Part shown: positions 16,962-43,237 of the stretch, one piece after another
Layout: each line of letters begins with the position of its first letter
How positions within the stretch are numbered: position 1 is the first letter of the stretch
Source: a virus
Lineage: Duplodnaviria > Heunggongvirae > Uroviricota > Caudoviricetes
Strand: one strand, 5' to 3'
Virus record (IMG/VR): IMGVR_UViG_3300009132_000002
DNA: 64,000 nucleotides
Translations under genes and position numbers: made by a program
The notes under the pieces: generated by a model
Databases searched by the model: none
Told to the model about the DNA's origin: nothing
Seen by the model: the letters and a program-made list of their open reading frames with translations, nothing else

Positions 16962-17615
16962 TTATTTGAGCAACGAGAGGAAATTCTTAAACTCACGTTC
17001 CTGCACTAAATGCAGATCGCCACGCGGAGCTTTTTTAATTTCAGTCTCAATTTCTTCAATATCTTGAGGTTGAATAACACCATTGTTCCAAACCCACTCT
17101 ACACCTTCCATAATCCCATTAACGAAAGCTTCTGGAGCAGATGGATCTTGTACAATGTCGACAGTGTTTAACATAAAGTCTTCCTTTACATACATTGTCC
17201 CATTACGATTCTCAAGACTTCCCATACCACGAGTTGAAACGCCTAGTTGAACACCACCATCAAGGAGACCTTTTACAATGTTTCCCATTGGAGTATCTAA
17301 TATAAGCGCTTTCCCCATCACATTATTTCCTTCCCAAGTCATCTCGGTAATGCGATGCGAAACCTTATCTAAGTTAACAGTTGGTCCTTCTGGATGATTT
17401 AATTCTCCAACTGCTCTCTTAGTTGCAACCTGTTCGGTCGCAAATTTATGAACTGCAGATTCCATAATTTCTCTTGGATATATTCTGCCGTTTCTATTCT
17501 TACTTTCAGCTTGTGCGAAGATACCTTCGATCACATAGTTTTTCTTACCACTCTCATCTACCTCTTCGGTAACATAAGATAATTCTTGATCATTGTATTC
17601 CGCAATAAGCTTCAT
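16962..17615 (-). CDS. prohead protease gp21
   Basis: NRNGRIYPREIMESAV, GELNHP, VSTRGMGSL match T4 gp21. Start moved to Met23 (MKLIAEY..., 'cat' at 17613-15, RBS AAGGA) to avoid overlap with the upstream ORF; the ORF-track version is 16962-17681. Confidence 0.8.
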   Translation of the reverse strand: MKLIAEYNDQELSYVTEEVDESGKKNYVIEGIFAQAESKNRNGRIYPREIMESAVHKFATEQVATKRAVGELNHPEGPTVNLDKVSHRITEMTWEGNNVMGKALILDTPMGNIVKGLLDGGVQLGVSTRGMGSLENRNGTMYVKEDFMLNTVDIVQDPSAPEAFVNGIMEGVEWVWNNGVIQPQDIEEIETEIKKAPRGDLHLVQEREFKNFLSLLK

Positions 17616-17619
17616 AGTT

Positions 17620-17814
17620 TTATCCTTTATACTGTTTGACGAACTCTTTCGCCATTTTCTCAGCTTCTTTTTCTGAAGCATAAGTATCTAAAACGTCACC
17701 ATCAACTTTAGCCTGAAACTTATTTTTGACCTTTACAATCTCAATTGTAATGCCTTTAACTTTCATTTTCTTAGATTCTTCTAAGCTGGCTTTTAAAGTT
17801 TTAAACGATTTCAT
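17620..17814 (-). CDS. small basic protein (64 aa), possible prohead core component
   Basis: ORF track; position of T4 genes 67/68. Confidence 0.4.
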   Translation of the reverse strand: MKSFKTLKASLEESKKMKVKGITIEIVKVKNKFQAKVDGDVLDTYASEKEAEKMAKEFVKQYKG

Positions 17815-18160
17815 CTTCTACTTCTACTTCGTTATCTATTTCCATATCTACTTCTGTATCAACTTCATCAGTTGCATTATTATACATTCTATTAGCTAAT
17901 TCAATTTTTTTATTATCAATTGCATCTGCTAATTTATCAGCAACTAAATCATTAAAAATACTTGAAGAATTTACAAAATCTTTATCCTCAATAGACGATA
18001 TCATCGCTTCAATTGGATCAAGTTCCACTTCTGGTTCATCACTTGTAGCTTCCTCAGCAGATGTATCTTCCTCAGCAGATGTATCTACTGTGTCAATATC
18101 TTCAAGACTTTCGATGTTTTCGTCTGAAACATCTGTTACATTATTTAATTCATCATCCAT
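17801..18160 (-). CDS. highly acidic protein (119 aa), possible prohead core protein
   Basis: D/E-rich; late promoter TATAAATA at 18183-18190, 23 nt upstream. Confidence 0.4.
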   Translation of the reverse strand: MDDELNNVTDVSDENIESLEDIDTVDTSAEEDTSAEEATSDEPEVELDPIEAMISSIEDKDFVNSSSIFNDLVADKLADAIDNKKIELANRMYNNATDEVDTEVDMEIDNEVEVEDEIV

Positions 18161-18182: not shown

Positions 18183-18190
18183 TATTTATA
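18183..18190 (-). promoter_or_regulatory. T4-type late promoter TATAAATA
   Basis: 23 nt upstream of the 18160 start. Confidence 0.6.
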
Positions 18191-18208: not shown

Positions 18209-19429
18209 TTAATCGCCAGATACTGCTGTATATGTTGGGTATCTTCTTATAGTTCCATCACCTTGAGTACCCCAAACAATTCTTACAGCTCCATCACCAC
18301 CTTTTTGTCCATGGCCAATAGTACTTTGAAGAATACCGGCACCACCACCGCCAGGTGAAGCAGCTTTACCACTAAAAAATGGGTGATTTGATGTACCAGA
18401 AGTTGGTGGAGTTATCGAACCTTCACCACTTGCTGGACCTAAGTTTACGTTACCAGATGAAGCGGTATTAGAACCATGAACGGAAGGATACTGATGTACA
18501 CCTGTATTTGAAGTACTTATGGGAGTTAAACCATTATCACCTTGACCATATATTCCGGTTGCACCACCCGCTTGTCTTAAATTTGGAAAAGTCCAACCAG
18601 AACCGGTTTGGGTGCGTAAACCACCGGCACCACCACCAGCACCACCACTACCAGCAGTAGGTGATCCATCTGCATCTTGTCCTCGTCCACCACCAGAACC
18701 ATAACCAGCTGCACCACCCCCACCTGGAGACCTATGTGGAGTAGAAGTTGAACTAGAACCACCACGACCACCAGTTCCTCCAGCAATTTTTGCAGCGCCG
18801 CCACTCATACCACCGGCACCACCTGCAGTGTTATTTGCTGTATCAGTCGACCCGCCTTCGCCACCATATGCAATTAATCTGTCGGTACCACCATAAGAAA
18901 TAATAGTATCCCCACCGTCAGATCCATCTGCCCCAGAGCTTGTTCCACCAGCGCCACCACTACCAACAGTAATTGTTACAGTATTTCCAGCAGTAACTGC
19001 CCAATGACCATAAACCGCACCGCCTCCGCCGCCAGCAGATGCCGCAGTGGCTGAAGTAGATGAATTACCTCCACCGCCGCCTCCGCCGCCTATACAAACA
19101 GCTGAAATTTCTGTAACTCCACTTGGTACTGTCCATGAAAAGGATGTATCAAAAGTAAGACCAGAAGTGTTTCTATCAAATATAGCAGACATTGCTATAG
19201 TATCAAATCCTTGATTTCGGAAATCACTAAAACTAATTTGACCACTTGTAGGAATTCCAGATGTAACCACAGAACTAGTTACAACATTAGTTGCTGTTAC
19301 AGCTGTTTGAACATTAGTCCCATTTCTATAATATTCTGATAAACTCATTGCGGGAGGTGATTGATCTTCAAACATTTCCTCTATATCGTTATCAAATGAT
19401 ATGGCTCCGGTGTTTGGTATAAATGGCAT
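18209..19429 (-). CDS. glycine-rich repeat protein (406 aa), probable fibre/structural protein
   Basis: Long GGxGG/GSGG tracts; start overlaps the stop of the giant fibre gene (ATGCC at 19429). Confidence 0.6.
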   Translation of the reverse strand: MPFIPNTGAISFDNDIEEMFEDQSPPAMSLSEYYRNGTNVQTAVTATNVVTSSVVTSGIPTSGQISFSDFRNQGFDTIAMSAIFDRNTSGLTFDTSFSWTVPSGVTEISAVCIGGGGGGGGNSSTSATAASAGGGGGAVYGHWAVTAGNTVTITVGSGGAGGTSSGADGSDGGDTIISYGGTDRLIAYGGEGGSTDTANNTAGGAGGMSGGAAKIAGGTGGRGGSSSTSTPHRSPGGGGAAGYGSGGGRGQDADGSPTAGSGGAGGGAGGLRTQTGSGWTFPNLRQAGGATGIYGQGDNGLTPISTSNTGVHQYPSVHGSNTASSGNVNLGPASGEGSITPPTSGTSNHPFFSGKAASPGGGGAGILQSTIGHGQKGGDGAVRIVWGTQGDGTIRRYPTYTAVSGD

Positions 19430-22400
19430 TATTTTTCCTTCTCAAGTCTTTCAACTTTTTCGGAAAGTTCTTTAATTGCTTCAATTAACAAAGGAACCAA
19501 CTTTTCATATCTAACAGCTTTATATCCATCTTCTCGTGTTGTTGTAACTTCTGGTAACACTTCTTCAACTTCTTGAGCTAAGACTCCAGCCTCTCTGAGA
19601 GTTTGATCTTTATCTTCAGCTAATTCATTCCAGTTAAATGTATATCCAGAAATTTTATTTATCTTATCTAAAGCATTATCAATTACAGAAACATTAGTCT
19701 TTAATCTTTCATCTGATGTTCCAAATGCAGTAATATCTCCTGTCGCAGTAAAGGCACCAGTAAGTGTAAAGTTACCAGTGTAAGCCCCGGACATTGCTAA
19801 ACCACTAGTTTGTTGTGTTAAACCACTACCAGCAGCAACACTAAATGTAGTACCACTTAAACCAATGCCACTACCCGCTGAATATGTAGTATTATTATCT
19901 GTGCTACTTATAGTAAAACTAGGATAAGTTCCACTAATACTTGTTGCGCCACTACCTGTTAAAACTACGGTTTGATCAGGGGCTGTATTAGTAAATTCAT
20001 TACTTGAATCAAGAGAAAGCCCAGTTCCTGCAGTATATACTTCACCAGCAGTCCCGGGCTCGAAGCTTGATGTAGTACTATTATAAACAATCGTTTCACC
20101 ATTAGCAATACCTGACGTTGACACGTCGGTTAAATCGTTAATAACCGAAGGTATAGTACCTAAAGCAGCAGTAGAAAGAGATTGTACATGGCCCCATTCA
20201 TCGTAGTTTACATTTTGTATTACAGTAGTGCCGGAATTACTACCAGTATGCGATGAACCAGAACCAGTGGCACCATGTGAAATTGTAACTGTTTCAGATG
20301 TTGAGCTGTTTGTTGTAAACGCTCCACTATTAGTTCCCGGCTGACCACCTCCACTAATAGCAATACCATTTACGCCGCCTGTGCCAGCTTGTCCTTGTAT
20401 TGTTATAGTTTCATTATTTATTTGTTCAATCTGAACAACTGAACCAATAACCATATCACCATTATTATCTACTTCAATTTCAATACCATCTGTTGACTTG
20501 ATAGTAAGTGTAGTATCTTCTCCACTGTCTGGACCTTGATGAAGTAATTTGAAATCAACCTCATTTGAATCACCACCAGCAACAAAATCTGAAATATATG
20601 TAGTATTAGGTAAGTGCATACTATCAGCACTAATTTCTATTCTTCCATCATGTGTTCCAGCTGGAGCGATAGATGAAACTGTTATTCCACCAGAACCGAA
20701 CACTTCAATATATTGAGAAGAAGTATTTGCATCTGCATCAGTCTCAGTAAATGTAATTCTTGGTAAAGTGCCAGGAGATGAAGCATTTGCTTGTAATGTT
20801 GAAGTAATTTGAAGTGGTGCTGCACTAAAATTAAGTGAAGCATTAGAAGCGCCAGGATTTGTAACACTTACGCTAAGCCCATTTGAAGCAGTAACTGCAA
20901 GATTAGTTGTAGTAGTAATACCAGTTGCAGGGCTTGAATCATTAAGAGTTATGAAATTAGAATTACCTACAGATGTTCCGGTAATTGTGCTTACAGCCTG
21001 AAGATCAACGCCCGATATTGTTATTTCATCAGAGGCTTGAGATACTGAAATGCCATTAGTTCCTAAAAAGCTTACTTGGTCATCAACCGTGGCACTATTA
21101 ATTGTTTCAGTAAGAACTAGCTTTGCGCCACCTGATACATCAGCAGATGATACAGCATATCTTGCGAGTAAAGGATTAGCGTCTATAACAATAGAGTTTG
21201 TGCCTGAACCATCTACGTTAATTCCATTAGTACCTGAAATACTAATTGTTTCTACTCTCTGTTGACCATCAGAATCAACAGTTAAATTTATTGTACCACT
21301 ATTTGATGCAGATCCACCGCCTGATAAAGCATAGCTAGATTGTAAACCAAATACAGTTTCTTGTGTAAGAGTTGAAGTAATTTCTATGGCATTATTACCA
21401 TCATCATAATTAACTGATATATTATCATCACCAGACATAATATTACCAACAGCATCTTGTGCACGCTCATTAGTAAAATATAAATTAGTAGTTCCTTCTG
21501 GTAATCCATCAGTATTAGTAATACCTTCAAAATCAATAGTTTTAGCTGACTGATCTACAGTAATTTTACCTATACCACCGCCCGATGCATCATAAACATT
21601 ATTATTATTAGTATTATCAGAAGTTAATGCTAAAAACACTCTAGCAGAATCAAAATATAAATTTAATCCTGACGGTCCTTCTGGAATATCATCCGTTGTT
21701 AAACCATTTTGTCGACCAGTTGCATCTCCAACTGTAGTTGGAGTGGTTCCACCAGGGTTAGTGAAATTGAATGAACCTCCATTTTCTATATTCATATTTA
21801 CAGTACCATCTTCTTCAACAGAAAATACTGCATCACCTTTTGCTGTAGCATCAACTAAAGGATTTTTATTTGAAAATATACCAAAGAAGTTATCAGTTTC
21901 ATTATCATTTCTATCTAAGAAATTAAATATACTCTGACGGGAAGCAGTTGCTATACTATTAGTACCTTTACCAAGATTATAACCAAGATCAATTATTTCA
22001 TGATCTAGGGAATCCGCAAAAAATCTATATGATTGAACATCAAGATCACCACCCAATTGAGGCGTTTGATCATATACAATATGAAGATTACCTCTATGGA
22101 AGTTTATAAATCCATTTTGTAATACACCATCTATATTTGGAGTTTCAAATGCTATTTTATCATTAAGATTATCACCAACTCTAATAATTAATGATCTTTG
22201 AGAATCTTCTTCAGACGCAAGATAAATTCTAGCACTATCTTCATTAATACCACTTGCTGTAAAAGAAGTTCCTTCAAAGGCTAATCCTTTATACCTACCT
22301 TCGGTGAGCATAAGAGTTTGATTAATTTTTGTATTATGATTTTCATCTATCCATGCTTCTCTCTGACCATTCCATGCAGATAAAGAGTTTGGCTGTTCAG

Positions 22401-25221
22401 GACCATATGTATGAAATGTTCCTTTTGTGATACTAAAGTTTAAATCTGCATATGGAGAACTTGAAGAATCATCGCTACTTATTTCATGAGCTTTAGCTGT
22501 TCCACCGGTACCGGTTTTTTGAAATACTGCTGCGTAAGGATTTCTAATAGGAGTTGTTGGCGCATTATAGAGTTTCATCAATCCCTGATCAAACGCCGTT
22601 GTTCTTAAATTATTATTTACGTTTGCTATCCAAGCATCAGCCGATGTTATTGCACCAATATGACCATTAGACATACTATTAATAGCATTAGATAATAATG
22701 TAGAATTGGCTGAATCACTATGTGTATCAAATGTAGTTGAAGAAAGCTTGGTTCCACTAGAATTAAATGTGGTAAGATTTAATCCTCTACCGTGTCCATG
22801 ATAACCCTTTAATAAAATTGGATTTTCATCAAACTCAAAATATTCTGTTTCATTATCAATATACAAATATGCTGGAGAATTATTATTTAATCCTGTTCCT
22901 CTCATTTCTATATATGCAGAACTTTGAGGTAAGCCACTTAAATCAACTTCTTTTATGAGCTGATATGAATTATCTGGATCTTTCCAATATAGAGTTTTTG
23001 ATCTATCATTGTAAAAAAATCTACCAGTTTTCATTACCTCGTCAACGCCAACACTACTATCTAAAATATAGTATCCAGCGCTATCTACTGCTATAGGAAC
23101 TTCACCATCTCTAATATCTCTATCTGAAATAAAAGTATAAATTAAATCATTTTTAAGATCAAATATATTTTTATCATTATCATCAGTAGTAAATACGATA
23201 TCACTTATGATAACACCAGCTTGACCCTGTGTTCCAAATCCATATGCAGTTTCCGCATTTAAAAATGGTTGTAAAAATGTTTTTCCACTAAGTATGGCTT
23301 CTTCAATATCTAATTCAATACCAGTTTTAAATTCTGAATTTTCTATATCAGTATCACCAAATTGGTTTGTAAGAACTCTTATTATATTCCCTTGTTTTTC
23401 AGCAAAAACAGTTGTCTGGCCAGATGAAACCCAATCACTAGTTGATTGACCATCATATGTTGGTGTTATCGGCGCAGGTGCAGCACCTTTTGAAACATAA
23501 TCAAAATCAAAATAGAATTCGTCTGATTGACCAAAATTATAGACTAAACCCCAAGAAGGCGGATCTACTATTATTGTACCATTTTCAAGATAATCACTAT
23601 AATCTTGAAGAGTGCCTTTTGGTCTTCTAAAAGCACTAATAGTGTATTCTTTACCGCGTATTCTTAACTGAGCTACAACTAAGAATATTGGAAAATCTGT
23701 TGCTGCTGTGGAATTAAACGTTGCATTAACATTATAATTTTCATATTTTTTAGGTGATATGATACCTGCAAATGTTCTCGGGGCAAAATCACTATATATG
23801 CTATTAGTAGTTTCATCATATCTTAATGCTTGTGTGTCTGAATCATTAAATGGAAAGGTAAAATCTTCTTCTGGATCAGTATCTAATTCTCTTTGATCGT
23901 AATGAGAAAATCTACTAAACTGATCATAGTATTTGTATTTACCTTGAGAATCCATAGACTCAAGTTGAGTATCAGGGATATAATCTTTTTCAACATTTAA
24001 CTGATCACCGTTAAATACGAATCTTCCTCTTTTAAGAGCATAATCTAAATAGTATGATTGTGCAGATTCTTCATATGATAAAAACTGCCCATCTCTTCCA
24101 GATAAATTAAGAAGAATATTGTTAGATGATGTGTTACCTGTAGTATCATCGGAAGCAATAGAATCAGCATATCCAAATAAATCTGGTTCTATTCTCCAAG
24201 CTTGTGCTGCACTATCATAGTATATTTTTACATTGCTATCAGCAGCCCATTTTATTCCATCACTGTCTAAAACGTATTGATTTACATGAATAGATTTTGC
24301 TACAACCACACCGGTTTCATCAATACTAAAAATCGCATTATTTTTATCAATTGAATCAGTATATGCGTTTAAATCGTTATATAGTGCCCAATAATTTCCG
24401 GTTTCAGTATTATTGACATCTAAGAAATTATGTATAGATTGTAGTGAAGTTAATCCTACATTATTATTTCTATCTACTGGTTCATCATAATCTAAATCTA
24501 ATGTATTACCACTATCTGCTGATCCAGCACCATATATTCTCTGACCATTTATTTCTAAGTCAGTGACAAGTGTATTAGCAGCTAATTGATTAGTTTGTAA
24601 ATAGTCAACATATTTTAGATTTGTAATATGAGCCGAATCAACTCTCATACCAGAAATATAAGCTGAATCTGCAGTAAGCTTTCCTATTACAGCTGAATCT
24701 ATATTAAAACTATTTACTGGTACACCAAAATCTGATTCAAACTCATCTACTGGTAAATCTGTTAAAAACACATCAGGCGGATTACCATTTGCAAATATTG
24801 TGAAATTTAAATCTGAAAAAGTGCTTTCTATCCATTGACCATTTTTTAAATTTCGTTCAGATTCTGCTACTGCAGTACCTATTATAAAATCTAATGATCT
24901 ATTTCCTTGTGGATCAAGAATAGTATTTTCATCAAGATATAATCTAACTGGGATATTAGATGTATACAGTTTTTTATCTGGTGGATTTAATCCTGTTTCT
25001 ATAGCTGATGAATTTGGAAAAAAACTATAACCGGGTAAAGTTTCCTGAGAAAAGAACCAACCACGAATATAATCTGGATTAGGTGCGGTTTCTAAATCTA
25101 CAGAAAACTCAACCCAAACTGTATCACGGTCAATTGTTCTAGTAATTGTGCCAGACGAACTGGAAGGATCTATTGTCCCGCTTTGCCCCTTGTCTGTGAT
25201 ATAGGAAACTAAATCATACAT
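19429..25221 (-). CDS. giant fibre protein (1930 aa) with C-terminal intramolecular chaperone (peptidase S74-type) domain
   Basis: C-terminus ...FGTSDERLKTNVSVIDNALDKINKISGYTFNWNE...GVLAQEVEEVLPEV...YEKLVPLLIEAIKEL matches the auto-cleaving chaperone of endosialidase / T5 L-shaped tail fibres. Ser/Thr/Gly/Asn-rich beta-rich body. Confidence 0.7.
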   Translation of the reverse strand: MYDLVSYITDKGQSGTIDPSSSSGTITRTIDRDTVWVEFSVDLETAPNPDYIRGWFFSQETLPGYSFFPNSSAIETGLNPPDKKLYTSNIPVRLYLDENTILDPQGNRSLDFIIGTAVAESERNLKNGQWIESTFSDLNFTIFANGNPPDVFLTDLPVDEFESDFGVPVNSFNIDSAVIGKLTADSAYISGMRVDSAHITNLKYVDYLQTNQLAANTLVTDLEINGQRIYGAGSADSGNTLDLDYDEPVDRNNNVGLTSLQSIHNFLDVNNTETGNYWALYNDLNAYTDSIDKNNAIFSIDETGVVVAKSIHVNQYVLDSDGIKWAADSNVKIYYDSAAQAWRIEPDLFGYADSIASDDTTGNTSSNNILLNLSGRDGQFLSYEESAQSYYLDYALKRGRFVFNGDQLNVEKDYIPDTQLESMDSQGKYKYYDQFSRFSHYDQRELDTDPEEDFTFPFNDSDTQALRYDETTNSIYSDFAPRTFAGIISPKKYENYNVNATFNSTAATDFPIFLVVAQLRIRGKEYTISAFRRPKGTLQDYSDYLENGTIIVDPPSWGLVYNFGQSDEFYFDFDYVSKGAAPAPITPTYDGQSTSDWVSSGQTTVFAEKQGNIIRVLTNQFGDTDIENSEFKTGIELDIEEAILSGKTFLQPFLNAETAYGFGTQGQAGVIISDIVFTTDDNDKNIFDLKNDLIYTFISDRDIRDGEVPIAVDSAGYYILDSSVGVDEVMKTGRFFYNDRSKTLYWKDPDNSYQLIKEVDLSGLPQSSAYIEMRGTGLNNNSPAYLYIDNETEYFEFDENPILLKGYHGHGRGLNLTTFNSSGTKLSSTTFDTHSDSANSTLLSNAINSMSNGHIGAITSADAWIANVNNNLRTTAFDQGLMKLYNAPTTPIRNPYAAVFQKTGTGGTAKAHEISSDDSSSSPYADLNFSITKGTFHTYGPEQPNSLSAWNGQREAWIDENHNTKINQTLMLTEGRYKGLAFEGTSFTASGINEDSARIYLASEEDSQRSLIIRVGDNLNDKIAFETPNIDGVLQNGFINFHRGNLHIVYDQTPQLGGDLDVQSYRFFADSLDHEIIDLGYNLGKGTNSIATASRQSIFNFLDRNDNETDNFFGIFSNKNPLVDATAKGDAVFSVEEDGTVNMNIENGGSFNFTNPGGTTPTTVGDATGRQNGLTTDDIPEGPSGLNLYFDSARVFLALTSDNTNNNNVYDASGGGIGKITVDQSAKTIDFEGITNTDGLPEGTTNLYFTNERAQDAVGNIMSGDDNISVNYDDGNNAIEITSTLTQETVFGLQSSYALSGGGSASNSGTINLTVDSDGQQRVETISISGTNGINVDGSGTNSIVIDANPLLARYAVSSADVSGGAKLVLTETINSATVDDQVSFLGTNGISVSQASDEITISGVDLQAVSTITGTSVGNSNFITLNDSSPATGITTTTNLAVTASNGLSVSVTNPGASNASLNFSAAPLQITSTLQANASSPGTLPRITFTETDADANTSSQYIEVFGSGGITVSSIAPAGTHDGRIEISADSMHLPNTTYISDFVAGGDSNEVDFKLLHQGPDSGEDTTLTIKSTDGIEIEVDNNGDMVIGSVVQIEQINNETITIQGQAGTGGVNGIAISGGGQPGTNSGAFTTNSSTSETVTISHGATGSGSSHTGSNSGTTVIQNVNYDEWGHVQSLSTAALGTIPSVINDLTDVSTSGIANGETIVYNSTTSSFEPGTAGEVYTAGTGLSLDSSNEFTNTAPDQTVVLTGSGATSISGTYPSFTISSTDNNTTYSAGSGIGLSGTTFSVAAGSGLTQQTSGLAMSGAYTGNFTLTGAFTATGDITAFGTSDERLKTNVSVIDNALDKINKISGYTFNWNELAEDKDQTLREAGVLAQEVEEVLPEVTTTREDGYKAVRYEKLVPLLIEAIKELSEKVERLEKEK

Positions 25222-25236: not shown

Positions 25237-26754
25237 CTATTCGTTTTCAGATTCAATATTATCTATCTCATCCGCTTTTTCATTATTTTCATCTTCTACG
25301 TCTTGTTCCATATTTTTCATATCTTCTTCAGAAAACTTTAGAACATTTCTCATAACCCAATCTTTAGTGTAGTATTCTCCAACATATTGTTGCATCATAT
25401 CAAGAGTTTGAATACGCTCTTTTAATATTTCACTTTCCTTAGATTCAGCAAAATAGTTATCTCTAGCATAATCAATCTTGAAATGCATTTTATGATTATC
25501 CCAATCTGAATCGGTAATAATCTTTTTTAAGATAAGCTGTTTCTTTAAAATATTTAAGAATAGATGACTAAACTTTTTACGAAGTCTATCAATAAATTTT
25601 TGAAACTTCACTTCATCTCTTGAAATTTCTGTTGTTCTACCAAGAGAAAATTGAGCTTCTTGTTCTAATCTATTAATTGGTACATTTAATGCACGATAAA
25701 CACGTTTTTGGAAATAAACAATATCATCTATTTGACCAAGATTTTCTCCTCCTGGAAGAGTAGAGATTTCAGTACCTCTACCACCTTCTCTACGAGGTAA
25801 CCAAAAATCTTCCAACATAGACATATGTTTGCGATCATCTCTTAACTCTCCATTCTGAGCGTCATATACTAATTTATTACGATATTTCGTCATAATATTT
25901 TTCATATATTCTTCTGCTTTACCTTTTGGAAGGTTACCTACATCAATATAAAAAATTCTACGTTCTGGTGCTCTAGCAAGTCTATAGATAACAAGCGAGT
26001 CTTCCATCATTCTTAACTGGTTAATTGGTTTAATGCATTTATGTAAGTGAGATACTACCTTTTTACGAGTCTCATCCAATAAACCAGATGTTACATAGCT
26101 AATAGAATCAAGAGTAAACTTGACAGCATCTTTTTGTTGCCCTGGCTTTTCTTGGAAAACATAATATTCGTTTACATTTTCTATAACCTCTGCATTTGTA
26201 AGAGGATCTTTTTTCTTTTTTATCTCTTTCATTTTACGAATTTTCATAGCGTCAATAAAACGAATATCTTGAATACCAGCTTTTTCGTTCTTTTCGTCTA
26301 CTACTAAATGGTGGTATATTCTACCATCAATATACCATCTTCTAAATATATCATGACCATTTTCTTCAAAATTTAACATACCTAAAATATTAGTAAATTC
26401 TTCTTGTACTTGTTTTTTAATGTTTTCCGGAAAATCAACATCTTCAAGTGTAAGACTAATAGGATTAAGATCTGAAGTTCCTACTATTGATTCGTTGACA
26501 ATATCTTCAATAGCATTATCAACTTCGGGGTGTACTGCTACACCACGATATTTTCTTATCATCTGATAATTATCTTTTGCAGAACTACCATCAATATCTA
26601 AGTATTGTCCAAAGTGACTACCAGATGCTGTAACATAACCAGCACCATCGTCATCAGCTTTTGGAACAACTGATTTAATTTTTGATTGGGCTTTTTCAGA
26701 TGAATTAGCTCTTTTGATTTCAAATCCAAAGAGTTTAAGTGAATTATCTGCCAT
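25237..26754 (-). CDS. portal vertex protein gp20
   Basis: 505 aa; position between gp19 and the head genes. Confidence 0.75.
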   Translation of the reverse strand: MADNSLKLFGFEIKRANSSEKAQSKIKSVVPKADDDGAGYVTASGSHFGQYLDIDGSSAKDNYQMIRKYRGVAVHPEVDNAIEDIVNESIVGTSDLNPISLTLEDVDFPENIKKQVQEEFTNILGMLNFEENGHDIFRRWYIDGRIYHHLVVDEKNEKAGIQDIRFIDAMKIRKMKEIKKKKDPLTNAEVIENVNEYYVFQEKPGQQKDAVKFTLDSISYVTSGLLDETRKKVVSHLHKCIKPINQLRMMEDSLVIYRLARAPERRIFYIDVGNLPKGKAEEYMKNIMTKYRNKLVYDAQNGELRDDRKHMSMLEDFWLPRREGGRGTEISTLPGGENLGQIDDIVYFQKRVYRALNVPINRLEQEAQFSLGRTTEISRDEVKFQKFIDRLRKKFSHLFLNILKKQLILKKIITDSDWDNHKMHFKIDYARDNYFAESKESEILKERIQTLDMMQQYVGEYYTKDWVMRNVLKFSEEDMKNMEQDVEDENNEKADEIDNIESENE

Positions 26755-26764
26755 AACTATCCTT

Positions 26765-26801
26765 TAACTATATAAAGGTTAGGGGAATAACTCCCCTAAC
26801 C
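26765..26801 (-). terminator. hairpin (10-bp stem GGTTAGGGGA/TCCCCTAACC) followed by a T/A tract between gp19 and gp20; attenuator-like
   Basis: Perfect inverted repeat; located in the 67-nt gp19-gp20 gap. Confidence 0.4.
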
Positions 26802-26821: not shown

Positions 26822-27364
26822 TTAAGAAGTTACAAATCCATCAGGAGCAATTGACTCCCAATACTGAACCTGAAACTCTACGCCGAACTCTTCAATTGTA
26901 TCTACATTCTCATATGATACCTCTATTGCGCTAATAGCAGTCGGGAAGATTCCTCTAAATTTATATTCATAAAGAACGGAACCATCTTTATCTAACTGTT
27001 GCACAGCTGCATCAACTTGATAATCAACTGGATTAGTGATACCAGTATTTGCTTGGTGTTGGTTAATACCATTCATCCACTGTTCCATTGATTTTCTGAT
27101 TTTAAAATCAGTATCATTGATAACAGTGACACCCCAAGGTTCAAACACTCTATCACCAGCCATTTGTAGCTGACGACCTCTATATGCTATAGGAATAGTT
27201 CCCATAACAGAAGCCGGCATTTGTGCTGCTTTGATCATGAATGATGCGAGTTCAACATCCCCAGCCACATAAGCAGGGAAACTTAATATTACTTGGAAGA
27301 GGTTAGGACGTGCCCCACCACCTCTAAGTTTTGATTTAAAATCATTTACGCCTAAAATTGCCAT
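26822..27364 (-). CDS. tail tube protein gp19
   Basis: ARPNLFQV...KAAQMP...RG..L...GDR.F..W.VTV.ND collinear with T4 gp19. Confidence 0.85.
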   Translation of the reverse strand: MAILGVNDFKSKLRGGGARPNLFQVILSFPAYVAGDVELASFMIKAAQMPASVMGTIPIAYRGRQLQMAGDRVFEPWGVTVINDTDFKIRKSMEQWMNGINQHQANTGITNPVDYQVDAAVQQLDKDGSVLYEYKFRGIFPTAISAIEVSYENVDTIEEFGVEFQVQYWESIAPDGFVTS

Positions 27365-27379: not shown

Positions 27380-29380
27380 TTATACTGCGCCGACGACTTC
27401 TTCAAAAGAAACGCCAGATCGGACAGCTACAAAATTAAGAGTAATGAAGTTGATTGATCTTGCGGGCTTAATGAAGATATTCGCTATAAATTGATTTGTA
27501 TCAACTATTTCTGCGGTGTTATTTGTTTCATCGCATACTAGTCTAAAATCTGTAATACCTCTTCGACCCTGAACATTTCTAAGAACTGGTTCTACGATAT
27601 TTACAAACTCAGCTCTTGTAAATTCATCATTGAATTCAAAGAGAATATTCTGAGCAGCTGTAGATATTGCTTTTTCAAGAGTAAGGAACAATCTACGAAC
27701 GTTAATTCTGTCGAATGCTGAAGGTCTTGAAAGATGAGTTTTATCACCAAACAATGTAATACCTTGACCCGGCAAATTAGCGATTGAATTATAACCTGCT
27801 TTGTAAAGCTCATCTCTATCTGATTTATCTGGATTAAATGCTAGAGATGCTACTCCAAAGTATGTACCTCTTCTTGTACCTGCTGGTGAGAACCAAGGTG
27901 CTGTATCATTATCTGATGCAGCCATGATACCAGCTGTTGAAGAAGCAGCAGGAATAAACACATAGTTGTCATTAAACTTATCATACACTTTAAGATAGTT
28001 AGCATCTGCAAATAGATATGAACTACGTGTAAATGTATTACTTGTTTGAGCTGCAATAATAGCTGTTCTTGGTGAGGCATTTCCAACCACTGCTGTTCTA
28101 TTTGGAGAAGCTACAACAACACAGTCTTTTCTAGTATTTTCTGCAATACTTACCATGTTATTAACTACTGTTTGTTGATCACTAGCAGATCCCATACCTG
28201 GAGCAATTAAGAAATCAACTGCAGTTCCGTTTGGATCATTCATAGTAGCAAAACCTGTTGCATATTCTGCAGATGTAAGACTACCAGAATTTGAACCATT
28301 TACAAGACTTACGGTGTGTACTAATTCACCTGAACCGGCATAATTTTTACCGTTTGCTGTTGCGGTACCTGCATTAGAACCAAATGCTGCTGGCATTGCT
28401 GCTGACCAAATATAATTTGAACTTCTAGCAATTACGTCAGGTGCATAGTTTCCTGTACCTTGTGTTGTCTTTGCGTTTGAAGCAAGTGACAAATATGAGA
28501 AAGTTTCAAGAACTCTGTTAGGAACTCCACTGAACTCTCCATCTTCATCAATAACCGCTACGTGAACTTCATCATTTGAAGCACCACGATCTGAAGCAAA
28601 GCTTGATGTACCAGGCGCGCCGTCAAATAATGAAGCATAAGCCCAGTTAGTAAAGTCTGAATCATTAGCGCCACACATAGAAACTTTTAATGAGTTTCCT
28701 AGTTCACCTGGCCACTTAGCAATAGTAATATGATTATTAGCTGCATGACCTGCTTTATCAGCATCCCATCCATCAGCATTTTGTACTACTGGTAAATTTT
28801 CTGGTGTATTTGTGGCATCATATGCGTTAACAGCAACTGTTTCTCTTCCACCACCAGTAATAGTAAATACTGGATCTGTGATATATGTATACCCTGAACC
28901 TGATACAGTAATTCCATCAATTTCATCATTTGCGGAATCATATAAAACGGTTAATGTTGGAGCCGCACCTGAATCAGGTGCTGAAATTGTAACTGTTGGT
29001 TCTGAAGTATAACCACCATTTGGTGCTACTGTAACCGAAGTGATAATACCTGAACCATTTTTGTTTGCGGTAAGTACTGCTGGGATTTGTGCACCACCGG
29101 TAGCTGTTGAAGTTGTAATTGCTCTAACGACATAAAGATCGTCTGAATATTGTAAGTAATTTGAAGCACTTAGGAAATCTATTGCTCTATCTGCATCGGG
29201 ATTTCCAAATTTGTTTGCAAGAGTTGCTTCGTTGTTGACGAGTACCGGCTCATTTACAGGACCCCAGCGAAAGTCACCTACAAACGCACCAGTCGATGTT
29301 GGTACATTCGGGACTCCGTTAGTAAGGTCTACTTCACGAGTAATAATTGCCGGAGACTCTGATGCTGTATATAAAGCCAT
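27380..29380 (-). CDS. tail sheath protein gp18
   Basis: 666 aa; adjacent to the gp19 tube gene, in T4 order. Confidence 0.8.
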   Translation of the reverse strand: MALYTASESPAIITREVDLTNGVPNVPTSTGAFVGDFRWGPVNEPVLVNNEATLANKFGNPDADRAIDFLSASNYLQYSDDLYVVRAITTSTATGGAQIPAVLTANKNGSGIITSVTVAPNGGYTSEPTVTISAPDSGAAPTLTVLYDSANDEIDGITVSGSGYTYITDPVFTITGGGRETVAVNAYDATNTPENLPVVQNADGWDADKAGHAANNHITIAKWPGELGNSLKVSMCGANDSDFTNWAYASLFDGAPGTSSFASDRGASNDEVHVAVIDEDGEFSGVPNRVLETFSYLSLASNAKTTQGTGNYAPDVIARSSNYIWSAAMPAAFGSNAGTATANGKNYAGSGELVHTVSLVNGSNSGSLTSAEYATGFATMNDPNGTAVDFLIAPGMGSASDQQTVVNNMVSIAENTRKDCVVVASPNRTAVVGNASPRTAIIAAQTSNTFTRSSYLFADANYLKVYDKFNDNYVFIPAASSTAGIMAASDNDTAPWFSPAGTRRGTYFGVASLAFNPDKSDRDELYKAGYNSIANLPGQGITLFGDKTHLSRPSAFDRINVRRLFLTLEKAISTAAQNILFEFNDEFTRAEFVNIVEPVLRNVQGRRGITDFRLVCDETNNTAEIVDTNQFIANIFIKPARSINFITLNFVAVRSGVSFEEVVGAV

Positions 29381-29468: not shown

Positions 29469-31064
29469 TTAGAAGTTTTCATGATCATACTGAACTGCCC
29501 AACCAAGCGCATCTGGATCATGTTGAACTACTTGATCTAATCCATCATCTATAAAACCAAATGGAAGTATATCATTCTCAATCTCTTTCATTCTTTCTTC
29601 AAATAACATTTTTTTAATATCAATGTCAGTTATTTCATTAAAGAATACGGTTCCACTAAAATAACTAAACATAACAAAGTTCATTACTAAATCATCATGA
29701 TTTCCTTGAGATGCTTCGTAAGATTGACCCTTTGCAACAAAGGTTGATATTTCAAGTATAGTTTCTTCATCAACAATATCAATTTTATGACTTTCTAATA
29801 AATCTTTAAAAGAAGAACAACCAATTCTTTTAACTTTTCTAGTCATAAGTAACCCAAGAGAATTAGCTTTTACTGTTGATTCAACAAACATATTTTCATA
29901 TTCTAATTCGTGATATAAACCATTACAAACAACTTGACCAGCATCATTTGATTCAATTACTACCATAGCATCATTGTAAGAACTCGCATATTTATAAATA
30001 ATATCGGGGAAGAGTATTGGAGAGATAGTATTGTTGCGATAAACAGCAACTTGCTTAAACGGGTTAGCAGTTACATCGAGTAAATTAAAAGTCGAATAGT
30101 CCTGTCCTCTTCCCTTCGCAACATCCACGGTCATAACATATTGATGATCTTTCTTTGGTGTTTCATATATTTTAACATCTTCTTTAGTAGTCTGAATAGG
30201 ATCTTTTTTTCTTAGCGATAATAAAGTTTCTGCACCAATAAGTGTATCTCCAGTACCAAAGAACGTATTTCCAAATTCTTGATCAAACTGTAACTGAGAC
30301 GTATTAGCAATAGTTTGCCTTTTCCATTCTTCATCTCTTCCGGGAACATCCCACCAATTAATTTCAAATCCTTTATATTCATTTACGCCTTGTACGGCAC
30401 CTTCCCAGATTTTATGGAATACATTACCAATTCCATTTGCGGTTGATGTGATAATAACCTTTGTATCTTTACCGGAAGAAACAACCGGATATGTAGATGT
30501 ATAAAATTCATTTGCTCTTTCCACAAAAGCAAACTCGTCGAGATAAAGAAGGTTAACAGACATACCACGAATGGAAGAACCAGATGTGGCAGCTGCAACT
30601 ATTCTTGAATTATTGCTAAATTCTATAGAACCTTTATTAAGTGCTTTACAACCCGGCTGCAAAAAGAACGGTAAATTTTCAAGCATAAGAGTAATTCTGC
30701 CAAGCATTTCTCTGGCAGTTGATCCCTTATTTGCCATAACTGCAATTGTTTTTTCAGGATGAAATAAAGCAAACCAAAGTAAATATGCAACAGATGAGAT
30801 AGATTTACCTGACTGACGACATGCTAAGACAATAGAAAACCTATTGTCGTTAAAATGTTTAAATAATCTCTCTTGATAATCGTATAATTTAAAAGGAACT
30901 AAACCTTCATCAAGAGATATAATTTTACAATATGTTTTTGCAAAGTAGGCAGCATCCTGAGAGCATTTCATATACTCACTTACTTCGTGATTAGTCCACT
31001 GCTGTACAACCCCATCACGCTTGACGTTCGGATTTCCTAAGTATGATTCATTTTGGTTCATCAT
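29469..31064 (-). CDS. terminase large subunit gp17
   Basis: Walker A LACRQSGKS, Walker B LLYLDEFAF, C-terminal nuclease domain. Confidence 0.85.
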   Translation of the reverse strand: MMNQNESYLGNPNVKRDGVVQQWTNHEVSEYMKCSQDAAYFAKTYCKIISLDEGLVPFKLYDYQERLFKHFNDNRFSIVLACRQSGKSISSVAYLLWFALFHPEKTIAVMANKGSTAREMLGRITLMLENLPFFLQPGCKALNKGSIEFSNNSRIVAAATSGSSIRGMSVNLLYLDEFAFVERANEFYTSTYPVVSSGKDTKVIITSTANGIGNVFHKIWEGAVQGVNEYKGFEINWWDVPGRDEEWKRQTIANTSQLQFDQEFGNTFFGTGDTLIGAETLLSLRKKDPIQTTKEDVKIYETPKKDHQYVMTVDVAKGRGQDYSTFNLLDVTANPFKQVAVYRNNTISPILFPDIIYKYASSYNDAMVVIESNDAGQVVCNGLYHELEYENMFVESTVKANSLGLLMTRKVKRIGCSSFKDLLESHKIDIVDEETILEISTFVAKGQSYEASQGNHDDLVMNFVMFSYFSGTVFFNEITDIDIKKMLFEERMKEIENDILPFGFIDDGLDQVVQHDPDALGWAVQYDHENF

Positions 31065-34002: not shown

Positions 34003-36516
34003 TTAACCTTCTAGTGGTTCTGTAGGTGGTGTAAAGTTTGTAGTATAACGAGCAAGACCTTTTGTAATTCTCACATCTTGAATATTACCAAACCATCTTT
34101 CGTTTCCACTAAATGATGAAAATCCATCGATTGCCCCAATACAATATGGATCTTCAGACATACTATGACTTATATCAGCACTATAATTTCTGGTGTATCG
34201 CAAAGTACCATCAACGTAAGTATAGAAAACTCCATTTACTCTTGTTGCAGCTAAATGAGTCCATTGGTTTGCTGGAATATCGTATGTGCCATGATTTACT
34301 GCAGTATCACCATACCCGCCTCTTACACGGTTGTATACATGAAAATTACCTGAGACCATGCCGCATGCTAAATTAAAAGAATCACCACAGCTAACAACTG
34401 TCGAATAAGATTGTCTACTTGTTGGATATACCCATGCTTCTACGGTCCAATCTTCTGTGCCAGCAAGCTTTGGTGCCCCGTTCATTGGGGCTGGCATCCA
34501 GTGACCCACTCCAGGAAAATACATTGAATAGGTTCCACTAAACTTCACTGGAGATGAAGCCCCTGCTGCACTTCCTACCGTTTCAATATTAGTAGTTTGA
34601 GAAGCATCAACAACAGCAGCGCCAATTCCTTTAAGATGTAATCCCGCAGAAGAATGTGTACTCATTGGAGCAGTTGGTACAGTACTTTCCCTCGCATCAC
34701 CTTTTACAACTTGAAAATCAGCCCAATGTCTTCCTGTGGTAGAGGTGTTAGTATTATTAAATAATTCTAAGTTTTTTTCGCTAGATACTCCAAGGTTCGC
34801 ACCAGTTGTTGTAATAACACTTTCTCCGTTTATTTTTACATGACCAGATCCGCTTGATGGCTGCCACCATTCAATGTAATTCCAAGCCTGTCTTTTAAAA
34901 GCACCATAGCCACTAAATGATGAATTCCAAGATCCACCCCCATCTCTAAATGTTAAACGTATTCTATCACCATTATTAGTATCTGGATAGTGTTGCATTG
35001 CGTAATAACCAGCGGCTGAGGTATTTGTTCCTTTTCGAAACAAATAATTTACTGTTGTATTTGTATCAGTACTATAATGCCAAAACTTCAGGGTAAAATC
35101 TGATGTTCCAACAGACAATTCATCTGATGATTCCGTTGCAGTTATTTTTTTATTAGCTTCATTTACAGTAATTGAACCACCGTTGACAGTTTTGTCATAC
35201 GGCTCACGATCAAATGGGCTAAATTGGCGTGTATAAATATAATTAATTCTTTCAGTAATAGTTTTTGGACTAGAACTTTTATCTAAAAAATTTGCCTCGG
35301 AACATCCTAAGAAAACTGTTCCAGTACCAGCAGTTGCAGGTGTAGTAATTGAAGCAGCAGTAGGTTCATTTGCGTATCCTGCTACGATATGAACATCTTT
35401 CATATATCCTTTAAAATCATGCGAACCTTGATATGTTTCACCAAGTTTACAACCTTGAGCAGTAAAATTTGTAGTATCACTTACTGTGGTGCCTACCTGA
35501 GAACCATTTAAGAATAATTTATTATTTCCAGATCCATCTCTTGTCCAACATAGATGCATCCACTCATTCACAGCTGTTGGTGCATCACTATTAGCAATAT
35601 TGAAAATGTATGAAGATTGATTATGAACTCTTATTAATTGACCGGGCCATACTTTAAAATACCAACCTGTACCGGCTCCAGTCTGATTGTCAACTATGGT
35701 CTGTTCCTGTGTGTTATTATCAACATATAACCATGCACTTACAGTTAATGCTCCAGTTCCTAATTCATAGTCTGATGAATTTGCACTAACATACGCATCG
35801 CCAGCAGTATCAGGAAAATATGTACTATACTGTCTATAAGGACTTAATCCTCCTTGAAATACTCCATCCCCATCAACGCTTATACTTGTATTATTTGTAG
35901 ATGAATCAGTGATACTTTCATTATTTCCTGTACCAACTGCATTTGCGTGCATTATAGTAAGTTTACTATTTGCTATGATTGTGATAAAATTAAGAGTGAA
36001 ACTAGAAACTGCAGGTAAGATATTTACTCCATCTGTTGCTCTAAAGGTTATACTACCCGTACCACCATCCGGAACTTGAGTTGAAGTTTTTGGAGTAATA
36101 GTAAATACACTAGAATCTTGACTGATAGTCGCAATAGAATCCATTGACCCACCAGTTTCATAACTATAAGAAATAGGGAATCCTTCTGGGTCTGATGCAG
36201 AAAGTGTAATGATAGTCGCATCCTGTGGGCTATCCGGATCTAATACAAAAGATGCTCCTGGTTGTCCACCTGAATCCCACGTTGGCGATTCGTTAACAAT
36301 CGCAATATTATACCAACCAGCGCCACTCCAAACAAACAATTTATTTGTATCAGCAACAAAGGCTTGATCACCAGCAGTATTTCCTGTAGCTGGTAACGAT
36401 TCGGCTGTGGCCACATCTATTTGTCCAGTATTAACTGAAGGAGCTGAATCCGTAACTGTGGATAAAACTCCCTTTTCACTAAAAGCTTGTGCTATAAGGA
36501 CTGACTTTGATGGCAT
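34003..36516 (-). CDS. fibre/whisker-like structural protein (837 aa) with two LamG/concanavalin-like domains
   Basis: Two jelly-roll signatures WMHLCWTRDGSGNNKLFLNGSQVG and WTHLAATRVNGVFYTYVDGTL; sits where T4 has wac/gp12. Confidence 0.55.
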   Translation of the reverse strand: MPSKSVLIAQAFSEKGVLSTVTDSAPSVNTGQIDVATAESLPATGNTAGDQAFVADTNKLFVWSGAGWYNIAIVNESPTWDSGGQPGASFVLDPDSPQDATIITLSASDPEGFPISYSYETGGSMDSIATISQDSSVFTITPKTSTQVPDGGTGSITFRATDGVNILPAVSSFTLNFITIIANSKLTIMHANAVGTGNNESITDSSTNNTSISVDGDGVFQGGLSPYRQYSTYFPDTAGDAYVSANSSDYELGTGALTVSAWLYVDNNTQEQTIVDNQTGAGTGWYFKVWPGQLIRVHNQSSYIFNIANSDAPTAVNEWMHLCWTRDGSGNNKLFLNGSQVGTTVSDTTNFTAQGCKLGETYQGSHDFKGYMKDVHIVAGYANEPTAASITTPATAGTGTVFLGCSEANFLDKSSSPKTITERINYIYTRQFSPFDREPYDKTVNGGSITVNEANKKITATESSDELSVGTSDFTLKFWHYSTDTNTTVNYLFRKGTNTSAAGYYAMQHYPDTNNGDRIRLTFRDGGGSWNSSFSGYGAFKRQAWNYIEWWQPSSGSGHVKINGESVITTTGANLGVSSEKNLELFNNTNTSTTGRHWADFQVVKGDARESTVPTAPMSTHSSAGLHLKGIGAAVVDASQTTNIETVGSAAGASSPVKFSGTYSMYFPGVGHWMPAPMNGAPKLAGTEDWTVEAWVYPTSRQSYSTVVSCGDSFNLACGMVSGNFHVYNRVRGGYGDTAVNHGTYDIPANQWTHLAATRVNGVFYTYVDGTLRYTRNYSADISHSMSEDPYCIGAIDGFSSFSGNERWFGNIQDVRITKGLARYTTNFTPPTEPLEG

Positions 36517-41664: not shown

Positions 41665-41749
41665 TGGTACGCCTGGAGGGCTTCGAACCCCCACTCCTTA
41701 CGGAACTAGATCCTAAATCTAGCGTGTCTGCCTATTCCACCACAGGCGC
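41665..41749 (-). tRNA. tRNA-Leu (anticodon TAG), type II
   Basis: Acceptor GCGCCTG/CAGGCGT, anticodon arm CTAGA-TTTAGGA-TCTAG, T-loop GGTTCGAAG, encoded CCA, long variable arm. Confidence 0.7.
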
Positions 41750-41754
41750 ATATT

Positions 41755-41827
41755 TGGTAGTGTTGGATAGAATCGAACTATCTCTTCAGGCTTATGAGAC
41801 CCGAGTCGGCACCTAACCGCAACACTA
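41755..41827 (-). tRNA. tRNA-Met/Ile2 (anticodon CAT)
   Basis: Acceptor AGTGTTG/CAACACT, T arm GATAG-TTCGATT-CTATC, loop CTCATAA, CCA encoded. Confidence 0.6.
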
Positions 41828-42364: not shown

Positions 42365-42554
42365 AGTACATTCCTTTATGAATTGGCAACTGAGGCTCTG
42401 TTATTACCTTCTCTGAGAGGGCCAGTCATTTCGCTCTTTACGTCCTTAGAATCGCAGCAAGGACTTCCAACTTATGAAACTAATATACTATAGTTCTTAT
42501 GATAAGTAAATAGATAAAATATGTTTTTACCTTTCTGTGACAAATATGTTACAG

Positions 42555-42989: not shown

Positions 42990-43009
42990 GATATTTCCCT
43001 TATTAATCC

Positions 43010-43052
43010 TTTCACTACTAGTATAACATATTTTTTCTAATTTGTAAACCAT
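43010..43052 (-). promoter_or_regulatory. early promoter (GTTTACA-N17-TATACT)
   Basis: Minus strand GGTTTACAAATTAGAAAAAATATGTTATAC. Confidence 0.45.
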
Positions 43053-43070
43053 TTTATGCATTATATTATT

Positions 43071-43146
43071 TGGAGTACGTGACTGGATTCGAACCAGCAT
43101 GATCCGGGGTTGCAATCCGGCGCCTAACCATTCAGTCCACACGCAC
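43071..43146 (-). tRNA. tRNA-Cys (anticodon GCA), tentative
   Basis: Acceptor GTGCGTG/CACGTAC, anticodon loop TTGCAAC, T arm GCTGG-TTCGAAT-CCAGT, CCA encoded; D arm irregular. Confidence 0.45.
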
Positions 43147-43153
43147 ATATTTT

Positions 43154-43230: not shown

Positions 43231-43237
43231 AATAAAA

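Follow-up and report, generated by a model that had tools for sequence, protein, structure and literature searches.

A chaperone-terminated fibre protein and a candidate polyglycine adhesin encoded directly after the portal gene in a group of uncultured marine T4-like phages

A 64,000-nucleotide (nt) window from a T4-like phage (IMG/VR record IMGVR_UViG_3300009132_000002; "the window" always denotes this whole stretch) carries, between the portal gene and the prohead-core and protease genes, a gene for a protein of 1930 amino acids (aa), here called FIB, followed directly by GLY, a gene for a 406-aa glycine-rich protein. Judged by its sequence, FIB is a fibre protein with a C-terminal Peptidase_S74 intramolecular chaperone, and together FIB and GLY probably constitute a two-gene host-recognition module of the virion, most likely carried on the baseplate or tail. 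The pair has the appearance of a group-specific, chaperone-matured receptor-binding fibre with an adjoining polyglycine adhesin, i.e. a known design in a position that is unusual and stable, although not unique in principle. An earlier note on this DNA had described the 1930-aa open reading frame (ORF) and its glycine-rich neighbour, and both are present exactly as claimed. FIB is more than a chance ORF, as an intact frame of 1826-2103 aa is found in dozens of independent metagenomic contigs. The note's description of FIB as Ser/Thr/Gly-rich is accurate for the distal ~700 residues but does not apply to the proximal half, where D, N, T and S abound. The position was correctly recognised as unusual: in T4 the interval between genes 20 and 21 holds genes 67 and 68 alone, and the cultured relatives C48C1, Melnitz, HTVC008M and S-SSM4 have just one to four small ORFs between portal and protease.

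The S74 assignment, also made in the earlier note, is borne out by a match of FIB aa 1836-1892 to Peptidase_S74 (PF13884) with 61.2 bits against a cut-off of 22. The motifs quoted there are found in the C-terminus (...GTSDERLKTNVSVIDNALDKINKISGYTFNWNE...GVLAQEVEEVLPE), which reads ...GTSDERLKTNV...ISGYTFNWNE...GVLAQEVEEVLPE..., and the domain opens with S1836-D-E-R-L-K1841, a serine with a lysine five residues downstream. Over the family alignment the site has the consensus SDxRLKEN and aligns with SDRRIK of S16 gp37; the chaperone region also matches S16 gp37 in the PDB (6f45_A) at E 2.9e-7 with the single sequence and 3.1e-12 with the family profile. In S16 gp37 the last 113 residues are cut off at DLNVS^SDRRIKK, exposing the docking surface for gp38 (PMC7917993), and by analogy the equivalent site in FIB would be GT^SDERLK at Ser1836. 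FIB is likewise expected to cleave itself and to form a trimer, and its extreme C-terminus, read from the sequence, is heptad-like (...LVPLLIEAIKELSEKVERLEKEK). The chaperone domain is 77-90% conserved in a profile of nine close orthologues, from which the window's own fibre was excluded and which is used for all FIB conservation values below, and the fibres P0090 and P0094 of two other lineages also match Peptidase_S74. This chaperone domain is promiscuous and uninformative on the place of fibre attachment. Other fibres and spikes that carry it include the K1F endosialidase, the T5 L-shaped tail fibre, the GA-1 neck appendage and cyanophage "fiber" proteins (P-SSM2). The C-terminal ~110-150 residues of FIB are 35-62% identical to fibres of cyanophages and marine viruses, but the similarity to other S74 fibres ends at the chaperone and the adjoining tip.

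Upstream of the chaperone, FIB comprises a conserved, presumably anchoring region, a globular middle and a divergent distal part (Table 1). FIB aa 1-170 aligns with the N-termini of P0089, P0090, P0094 and P0002, which represent the three other lineages described below, and aa 1-100 are 82-85% conserved. The alignment revealed an N-terminal architecture common to all lineages, in which the beta domain is followed by "DSAxI" repeats, with copy-number indels at aa ~172-216 among orthologues, and then by a G.FL.Y...DYAL..GRFV motif. In the HMMER search the NFLD...IFSIDETG module reappeared within other long fibre-like proteins, and orthologues cross-match between aa 198-306 and aa 1059-1141 at 35-46% identity. 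The central domain, aa 392-785, is 25% identical (E 2e-15) to proteins annotated as tail fibre in the Bacillus jumbo phages AR9 and PBS1, which share this single FIB domain only, and it is present in two copies in P0090. The best conserved stretch, aa 751-1050 (80-92% identity), contains the ILEI-like domain, which, judging by FAM3/POMGnT1-type domains, is a putative carbohydrate-binding lectin.

In the distal part, the shaft (S14 T12 G10 % at aa 1241-1600) shows a ~60-aa periodicity that is visible by eye only, internal repeats not being significant in a BLAST self-comparison of aa 1201-1835, and the shaft DNA contains no tandem repeats. The tip (T19 G16 S15 % at aa 1601-1835) includes the least conserved stretch of the protein, aa 1601-1800, with 47-57% identity and, near aa 1690, indels that reach ~190 aa, against 93-98% identity in neighbouring core genes; aa 1801-1835 are conserved among relatives. 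Overall, contigs that share 85-98% identity in their portal, protease and capsid genes encode FIB proteins 64-79% identical to one another. Conservation of the anchor, hypervariability just ahead of the cleavable chaperone and evolution faster than that of the genomic backbone would be expected of a receptor-binding fibre. PHROG searches point the same way: 11 of 15 matches are to tail-fibre families, with the tail-fibre profiles matching from aa 1244 onward, and one of the 15 is to a "head and packaging" family (virion structural protein) that covers only aa 1797-1908, around the chaperone. Matches of FIB to "long tail fiber distal subunit" families are confined to its chaperone and tip, which sets it apart from the T4 long tail fibre proteins gp34-gp37.

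The N-terminal domain is specific to this family. An exhaustive HMMER search with the N-terminal 400 residues retrieved 17 proteins among 1.84 billion representatives, and within those 1.84e9 representative proteins the true N-terminal domain is confined to fibres of the FIB family. A first search with aa 1-1100 gave two proteins only; a word-indexed search with alignment of the N-terminal 400 aa gave no matches, as did tblastn of aa 1-400 against 50,697 phage records at E<=1. A profile built on the entire FIB family matched PDB sequences through the chaperone domain only, and an AlphaFold2 (AF2) model of aa 1-172, built from a three-sequence alignment, had a predicted local distance difference test (pLDDT) score of 40 and was unusable.

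GLY is best read as a putative adhesin because of its predicted fold kinship with proteins of Pam3 and Bxb1, its conserved N-terminus and variable body, and its distant kin among fibre genes. Glycine makes up 24% of its residues, and aa 95-277 match Pfam Gly_rich_2 (PF21722) with 56.9 bits against a cut-off of 24.3, a domain detected in nearly all of 85 GLY homologues among the matches listed. A monomer AF2 model, made from 31 homologues, predicts a beta-sandwich with a polyglycine lattice, with pLDDT mostly >85 at aa 81-270 and 76-88 at aa 351-400. Foldseek matched this model to the Bxb1 tail tip (9d93_Qa, E 1e-7), to the Pam3 tail fibre gp24 (7ypx_A, E 3e-6) and to the TNF-like/glycine-rich domains of ALK and LTK, at Foldseek probabilities of 0.9-1.0 throughout and with target-normalised template modelling (TM) scores of 0.56-0.65 for the two phage proteins. 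The predicted combination of TNF-like beta-sandwich and glycine-rich lattice is shared with Pam3 gp24 (7ypx) and the Bxb1 brush proteins (9d93) at Foldseek probability 1.00, whereas sequence identity to GLY is just 19-24%; variability is concentrated away from the glycine motifs in both, as reported for Pam3 and as measured here for GLY. The TNF-like/polyglycine domains of Pam3 form the receptor-recognising end of the tail fibre, and their resemblance to the S16 gp38 adhesin has been noted (PMC9608196). Polyglycine "brush" domains have also been proposed as anti-receptors in siphophage tail hubs (PMC13243795).

The GLY N-terminus behaves differently from the body of the protein. Among 19 close homologues aa 1-80 are 76-89% conserved versus 33-60% for the body, and many homologues are alike over the N-terminal ~155 residues only. 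The second fibre lineage has a 571-aa partner protein that is homologous to GLY (E 7e-20), and the motif SL(S/T)(E/D)YYR.G...IPTSG.I...DF is common to both N-termini. In the model aa 1-76 have pLDDT <50 and a single short low-confidence helix at aa 30-43; that the monomer model leaves aa 1-80 unplaced would fit a segment that folds on a partner. The overlap in which the FIB stop and GLY start codons share one base (TAATG) is the same in all relatives of the two lineages that carry the partner gene. Distant Gly_rich_2 proteins are encoded either amid the fibre genes that precede the neck genes in another T4-like phage or beside a tail-fibre assembly chaperone. No matches to GLY were obtained by tblastn against the phage records, probably owing to low-complexity masking.

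The closest parallel to this gene pair is the gp37-gp38 system of the S16/T2 type. There, as here, the fibre gene ends in an S74-type chaperone with the motif S^SDxR.K and is directly followed by an adhesin gene. The adhesin combines a conserved N-terminus for docking with a polyglycine region for receptor binding, roles that in GLY are presumed. The differences are that FIB is a single 1930-aa chain rather than a four-protein fibre, that nothing N-terminal of its chaperone resembles gp34-37, that its genes lie after the portal gene rather than in a tail-fibre cluster, and that GLY has a predicted TNF-like and glycine-rich fold. gp38 is built of an N-terminal Trp-prong domain, a beta-helix and a polyglycine sandwich. 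GLY was considered as a gp38 homologue and this was rejected, as its sequence has no gp38 match in the PDB and the best 50 Foldseek matches are TNF-like/glycine-rich instead.

In the model proposed here FIB would be made late, probably co-transcribed with the portal gene, and its S74 chaperone would nucleate trimer folding of the beta-rich shaft. The chaperone would then cut itself off before Ser1836 to leave a mature fibre of ~1835 residues, which would be anchored to the particle by the group-specific N-terminal domain, carry conserved and probably sugar-binding globular domains in its middle, and end in a fast-evolving tip formed by the last ~235 residues. GLY would be translationally coupled to FIB and, through its conserved N-terminal docking segment, would most likely dock on the surface freed by chaperone release, like S16/T2 gp38 on gp37, and present a variable receptor-binding body; we infer this docking by analogy with S16/T2, and the conservation of GLY aa 1-80 and FIB aa 1801-1835 lends it indirect support. 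The alternative, that GLY is an independent short fibre which docks on the baseplate by its own N-terminus like Pam3 gp24, is possible if doubtful, and is compatible with the same reading of FIB. The match of the GLY model spans all of the receptor-binding part of Pam3 gp24, which is a complete fibre on its own, the variable tip suggests that FIB itself binds a receptor, and the P0090 lineage seems to have no GLY-type gene after its fibre. Against an independent fibre stand the TAATG coupling and the strict co-occurrence of the two genes in two lineages, and GLY also differs from gp24 in that its model has no confident long N-terminal helix like the gp24 baseplate-docking helix and no separate Tfa-type chaperone gene follows it.

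Within one uncultured marine T4-like group FIB is a long-standing component that is inherited vertically and diverges fast, a reading of the sequences that follows from its presence at one site in four lineages with fibre identities down to 26-35% and from the N-terminal architecture common to all of them. The nearest deposited phages are distant, namely C48C1 (portal 64.5% identical), the pelagiphages HTVC008M and Mosig, the methylophage Melnitz and cyanophages (about 50%), and all deposited relatives inspected are filed under Kyanoviridae. In 24 IMG/VR contigs the fibre is 69-100% identical to FIB over aa 1-1100, and those contigs that include the flanks all have the succession tube, portal, fibre, glycine-rich gene, acidic ORF, 64-aa ORF, protease. 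A second lineage, P0002 and P0094 (1826-1877 aa), is ~26% identical to FIB, with 72-73% identity in the portal and 79% in the capsid protein, and has the same gene order with a homologous glycine-rich gene of 522-571 aa. The P0089 fibre is 35% identical to FIB, that of P0090 ~27% identical, 2103 aa long and terminated by S74, and each lies directly after the portal gene (72% identical in P0090). Two metagenome scans for relatives of P0090 and P0089 found none, and these contigs were retrieved by exact look-up. Across the four lineages the fibres are 26-79% identical in alignable parts, the portals of contigs carrying the whole gene are 72-95% identical to that of the window, and a portal gene is immediately upstream of the FIB homologue in all 41 of the metagenomic loci with an upstream flank. 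A literature search for this gene arrangement and for phage C48C1 found no description.

To see how the portal-protease interval is used elsewhere, 80 further IMG/VR loci with portals 50-71% identical to that of the window were surveyed, of which about 60 were informative. The gap is 0.2-2 kb in most of them, and seven (~11%) hold large cargo, which in six of the seven is fibre-like and unrelated to FIB: collagen-like proteins, Mtd_N fibres or members of phrog tail-fibre families. The Mtd_N-type fibres reach 1562 aa, and locus L049 has four fibre-like paralogues. Over 600 residues the 1562-aa protein of L067 shares 47% identity with Melnitz genes that are annotated "tail fiber" and lie ~0.9 kb upstream of the neck genes, the label being an annotation. 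The corresponding region of T4 codes for the neck whiskers as well. Among the relatives accessory genes are also found at the gp14/gp15, gp15/gp16 and gp16/gp17 junctions, gp16 and gp17 being the terminase subunit genes. The late structural operon thus appears to tolerate insertions at several junctions, many of them fibre or lectin-type genes, and position within the "head block" is therefore weak evidence of a head function. The portal-protease position is seen here as a permissive, late-expressed slot repeatedly taken by fibre genes, with no sign of a head role.

Several features of these loci were recorded in passing. In L053, L067, L092, L101 and L111 (e.g. L067 9235-10449) a collagen-repeat protein with a conserved N-terminus directly follows the portal; this N-terminus is coiled-coil-like (..NEA.L.A..LK.L..E...LK) and an Mtd_N-type fibre often comes next. 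The collagen-like cargo matches cultured phages through its collagen repeats only. The seventh cargo locus, L091 (5852-10375), has five non-structural genes between portal and protease. Between gp15 and gp16 an extra 359-aa gene (MPIVLRNSKNSALTHSELDGNFTDL...) is present in L016, L017, L023 and L026 (e.g. L016 2667-3746), which has no Pfam match and a fibre-like N-terminal motif.

With regard to where FIB attaches, the baseplate or tail is the favoured place, the neck or portal is unlikely and the capsid very unlikely. Five observations weigh against the proposed module as a whole. The N-terminal 1200 residues of FIB have no characterised homologue in the phage-record, HMMER and PDB-profile searches; S16 gp38 (entry 6f45) is absent among the best 50 Foldseek matches to the GLY model; the gene after the fibre in the P0090 lineage starts unlike GLY; "tail fiber" labels in public records are mostly inferred rather than measured; and the fixed place after the portal in 41/41 loci, with an N-terminal domain seen nowhere else, could mean a functional link with the portal or neck. 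The earlier note had named, as an outcome that would count against its head-fibre idea, that homologues would map to the distal tail fibre of related phages; the searches found no homologue of the N-terminal or central part of FIB at a baseplate or tail-fibre locus. The large fibres encoded upstream of gp13 in C48C1 (1754 and 3348 aa) were examined as relocated orthologues and rejected, having just a ~50-aa motif in common with FIB.

That last of the five observations keeps alive a minority reading, in which FIB is anchored at the head-tail junction (collar, neck or portal), comparable to the whiskers of T4 or the A-1(L) neck fibres, and serves in long-range first contact or sensing. We regard it as unlikely. 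Its basis is the immediately post-portal position in four lineages, down to 26% fibre identity, with an N-terminal domain exclusive to that position, and the gathering of unrelated fibre genes in the same interval of other marine T4-like phages. Neck-anchored fibres are described in the cyanomyophage A-1(L), the S74 chaperone also occurs in the GA-1 neck appendage (FIB matches it weakly, 3gud, E 0.4), and the second lineage has an enlarged, split gp14 neck gene. However, gene position is the sole argument for neck anchoring, Pfam and PDB searches show no similarity of FIB to fibritin or any neck-fibre protein, and the late operon of relatives takes accessory genes at the three other junctions listed above. 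A bolder form of the idea, which we consider quite unlikely, makes the post-portal interval a dedicated locus for head-tail-junction fibres and FIB a ~90-nm portal or neck fibre with its own adhesin and lectin-like domains for long-range contact with dilute ocean hosts; if true, it would account for four FIB lineages and several unrelated fibre families at one position, and for an N-terminal domain found nowhere else.

The suggestion of the earlier note that FIB is a head-associated fibre or decoration, with FIB trimers on the capsid shell, is very unlikely and found no positive support. The gene does lie within the head-gene block, and this position is its sole basis; Pfam finds S74 and ILEI alone on FIB, with no Ig-like, Hoc/Soc-like, cement or other decoration domain, and FIB does not belong with decoration proteins of the Hoc, Soc or phi29 gp8.5 type, the PDB profile search giving chaperone matches only. 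All annotated or solved phage relatives of any part of FIB or GLY come from tails or necks, unrelated fibre genes occupy this interval in other marine T4-like phages, and the hypervariable tip and adhesin pattern are typical of receptor-binding fibres. The other suggestion of that note, a receptor-binding cassette recently acquired by horizontal transfer that landed by chance in the head block, is highly improbable and contradicted by the data: close cultured relatives do lack the gene, GC content is locally raised at 18-21 kb, and the C-terminal half of GLY and the FIB-tip indels are exchanged among relatives, but the same site is used in every member found of a group with 72-95% identical portals, the fibre has diverged in place to 26-35% identity as old vertical inheritance would have it, the GC rise is accounted for by Gly, Ser and Thr codons, and no flanking direct or inverted repeats, DNA tandem repeats, integrase, homing endonuclease, transposase or other mobility genes were found at the locus.

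Host recognition is poorly understood in the abundant uncultured marine T4-like phages; FIB and GLY are a concrete candidate host-range determinant for one group of them, and the variable tip and swappable adhesin could be used for host prediction or viral tagging. The locus also illustrates that, in these genomes, location within the head block predicts function poorly, a point of relevance to automated annotation. Were neck or portal anchoring true, FIB would represent a type of appendage new to T4-like phages.

Table 1. Features of the FIB/GLY locus and its flanking genes in the window (gene order on the minus strand: TerL, sheath, tube, portal, FIB, GLY, 119-aa ORF, 64-aa ORF, protease, scaffold, major capsid protein)
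Feature	Position	Strand	Description
TerL (large terminase)	29469-31064	minus	Pfam
Sheath	27380-29380	minus	Pfam
Tube	26822-27364	minus	Pfam
GC-rich hairpin	26777..26801	minus	Strong; between tube and portal genes, AATAAATA ahead of hairpin; pattern match only
Portal gp20	25237-26754	minus	Portal_T4, E 1.5e-170
FIB (fibre gene)	19429..25221	minus	ATG start, 1930 aa and stop codon; from ORF list and translation
FIB aa 1-170	24712..25221	minus	All-beta N-terminal domain specific to this phage group; presumed attachment domain
FIB aa ~175-345	24187..24699	minus	Short "DSAxI" repeats of variable copy number, then conserved NFLD...NYWALYN...IFSIDETG module
FIB aa 392-785	22867..24048	minus	Globular central domain
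FIB aa 812-886	22564..22788	minus	ILEI-like domain; Pfam PF15711, E 6.7e-7, 30.2 bits vs cut-off 27
FIB aa 1059-1141	21799..22047	minus	Second copy of NFLD/IFSVEEDG module
FIB aa 1241-1600	20422..21501	minus	Ser/Thr/Gly-rich shaft, ~six degenerate 55-65-aa repeats (...SGTNGI.V...)
FIB aa 1601-1835	19717..20421	minus	Hypervariable distal tip, predicted to stay on fibre after cleavage
FIB aa 1836-1930	19432..19716	minus	Peptidase_S74 intramolecular chaperone; predicted cleavage before Ser1836 (GT^SDERLK), putative partner Lys1841
TAATG overlap	19427..19431	minus	FIB stop and GLY start codons share one base
GLY	18209..19429	minus	406-aa glycine-rich protein, TNF-like and polyglycine ("brush") domain; putative adhesin
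GLY aa 1-80	19190..19429	minus	Conserved N-terminal segment, presumed docking region
TATAAATA octamer	18183..18190	minus	Perfect; 22 nt upstream of 119-aa ORF
119-aa ORF	17801-18160	minus	Very acidic; position of T4 prohead-core genes 67/68; from translation; kept in relatives
64-aa ORF	17620-17814	minus	Basic; 53-97% identical in relatives; kept in window lineage and second lineage
Prohead protease	16962-17681	minus	Peptidase_S77, E 6e-43
Scaffold, then major capsid protein		minus	After protease

The signals around the two genes suggest two late transcription units, portal-FIB-GLY and core-protease-scaffold-capsid, in which case FIB and GLY would be late genes. The portal stop and the FIB start are 15 nt apart with no terminator-like site between them, and the hairpin between tube and portal genes is a possible boundary of the first unit. 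The TATAAATA octamer ahead of the 119-aa ORF corresponds to what we take to be the T4-type late-promoter consensus; its count over the whole window is not above chance, so that its role rests on position only, and scans for sigma-70 promoters and terminators were at chance level. As in the T4 gene 20-21 interval, the protease gene is closely preceded by small acidic and basic ORFs, which here follow this motif, the difference being an extra 7 kb with two large fibre-type genes between the portal and the small ORFs. No Pfam family was assigned to the acidic 119-aa ORF. The protease ORF as called (start 17681) begins 22 codons ahead of the ATG at 17615 used by relatives and overlaps the 64-aa ORF; the true start is probably 17615, because relatives start with MKLIAEY and the 64-aa ORF ends at 17620.

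Elsewhere in the window, a gene a short way upstream of the neck gene gp13 (34003-36516, minus) encodes a protein of 837 aa that has three Laminin_G_3 (ConA-like lectin) domains. Its identity among relatives is 31-65%, against 86-98% for their neck genes, and this far lower identity marks it as another candidate for host recognition. A sugar-modifying gene cluster (53215-63943, minus) includes an NAD epimerase/GDP-mannose-dehydratase-like gene (62022-63167), family-25 glycosyltransferases (56572-57270 and 57815-58498) and weak GT8 and methyltransferase matches; its content varies among relatives, with a sulfotransferase-like gene in L132, and its products could modify the host surface or glycosylate the Ser/Thr-rich fibre. 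The window also holds 26 tRNA genes covering most amino acids (41665-51420, minus), an array that accounts for the ORF-poor, GC-richer stretch at ~44.6-51.5 kb.

Two further observations concern the relatives. In the second lineage gp14 appears split (L003 417-2902, with equivalents in L120-L125) into a 201-aa N-terminal part and a following protein of 590-628 aa, the C-terminal end of which matches gp14 aa 202-319 and which may be a neck protein with a large added domain. On the P0090 contig (L133 1024-1794) the match to the large terminase is interrupted and covers only aa 1-40 and 328-510; a 125-aa ORF is called at this place, and the gap may reflect a deletion, an intron or intein, or an assembly artefact.

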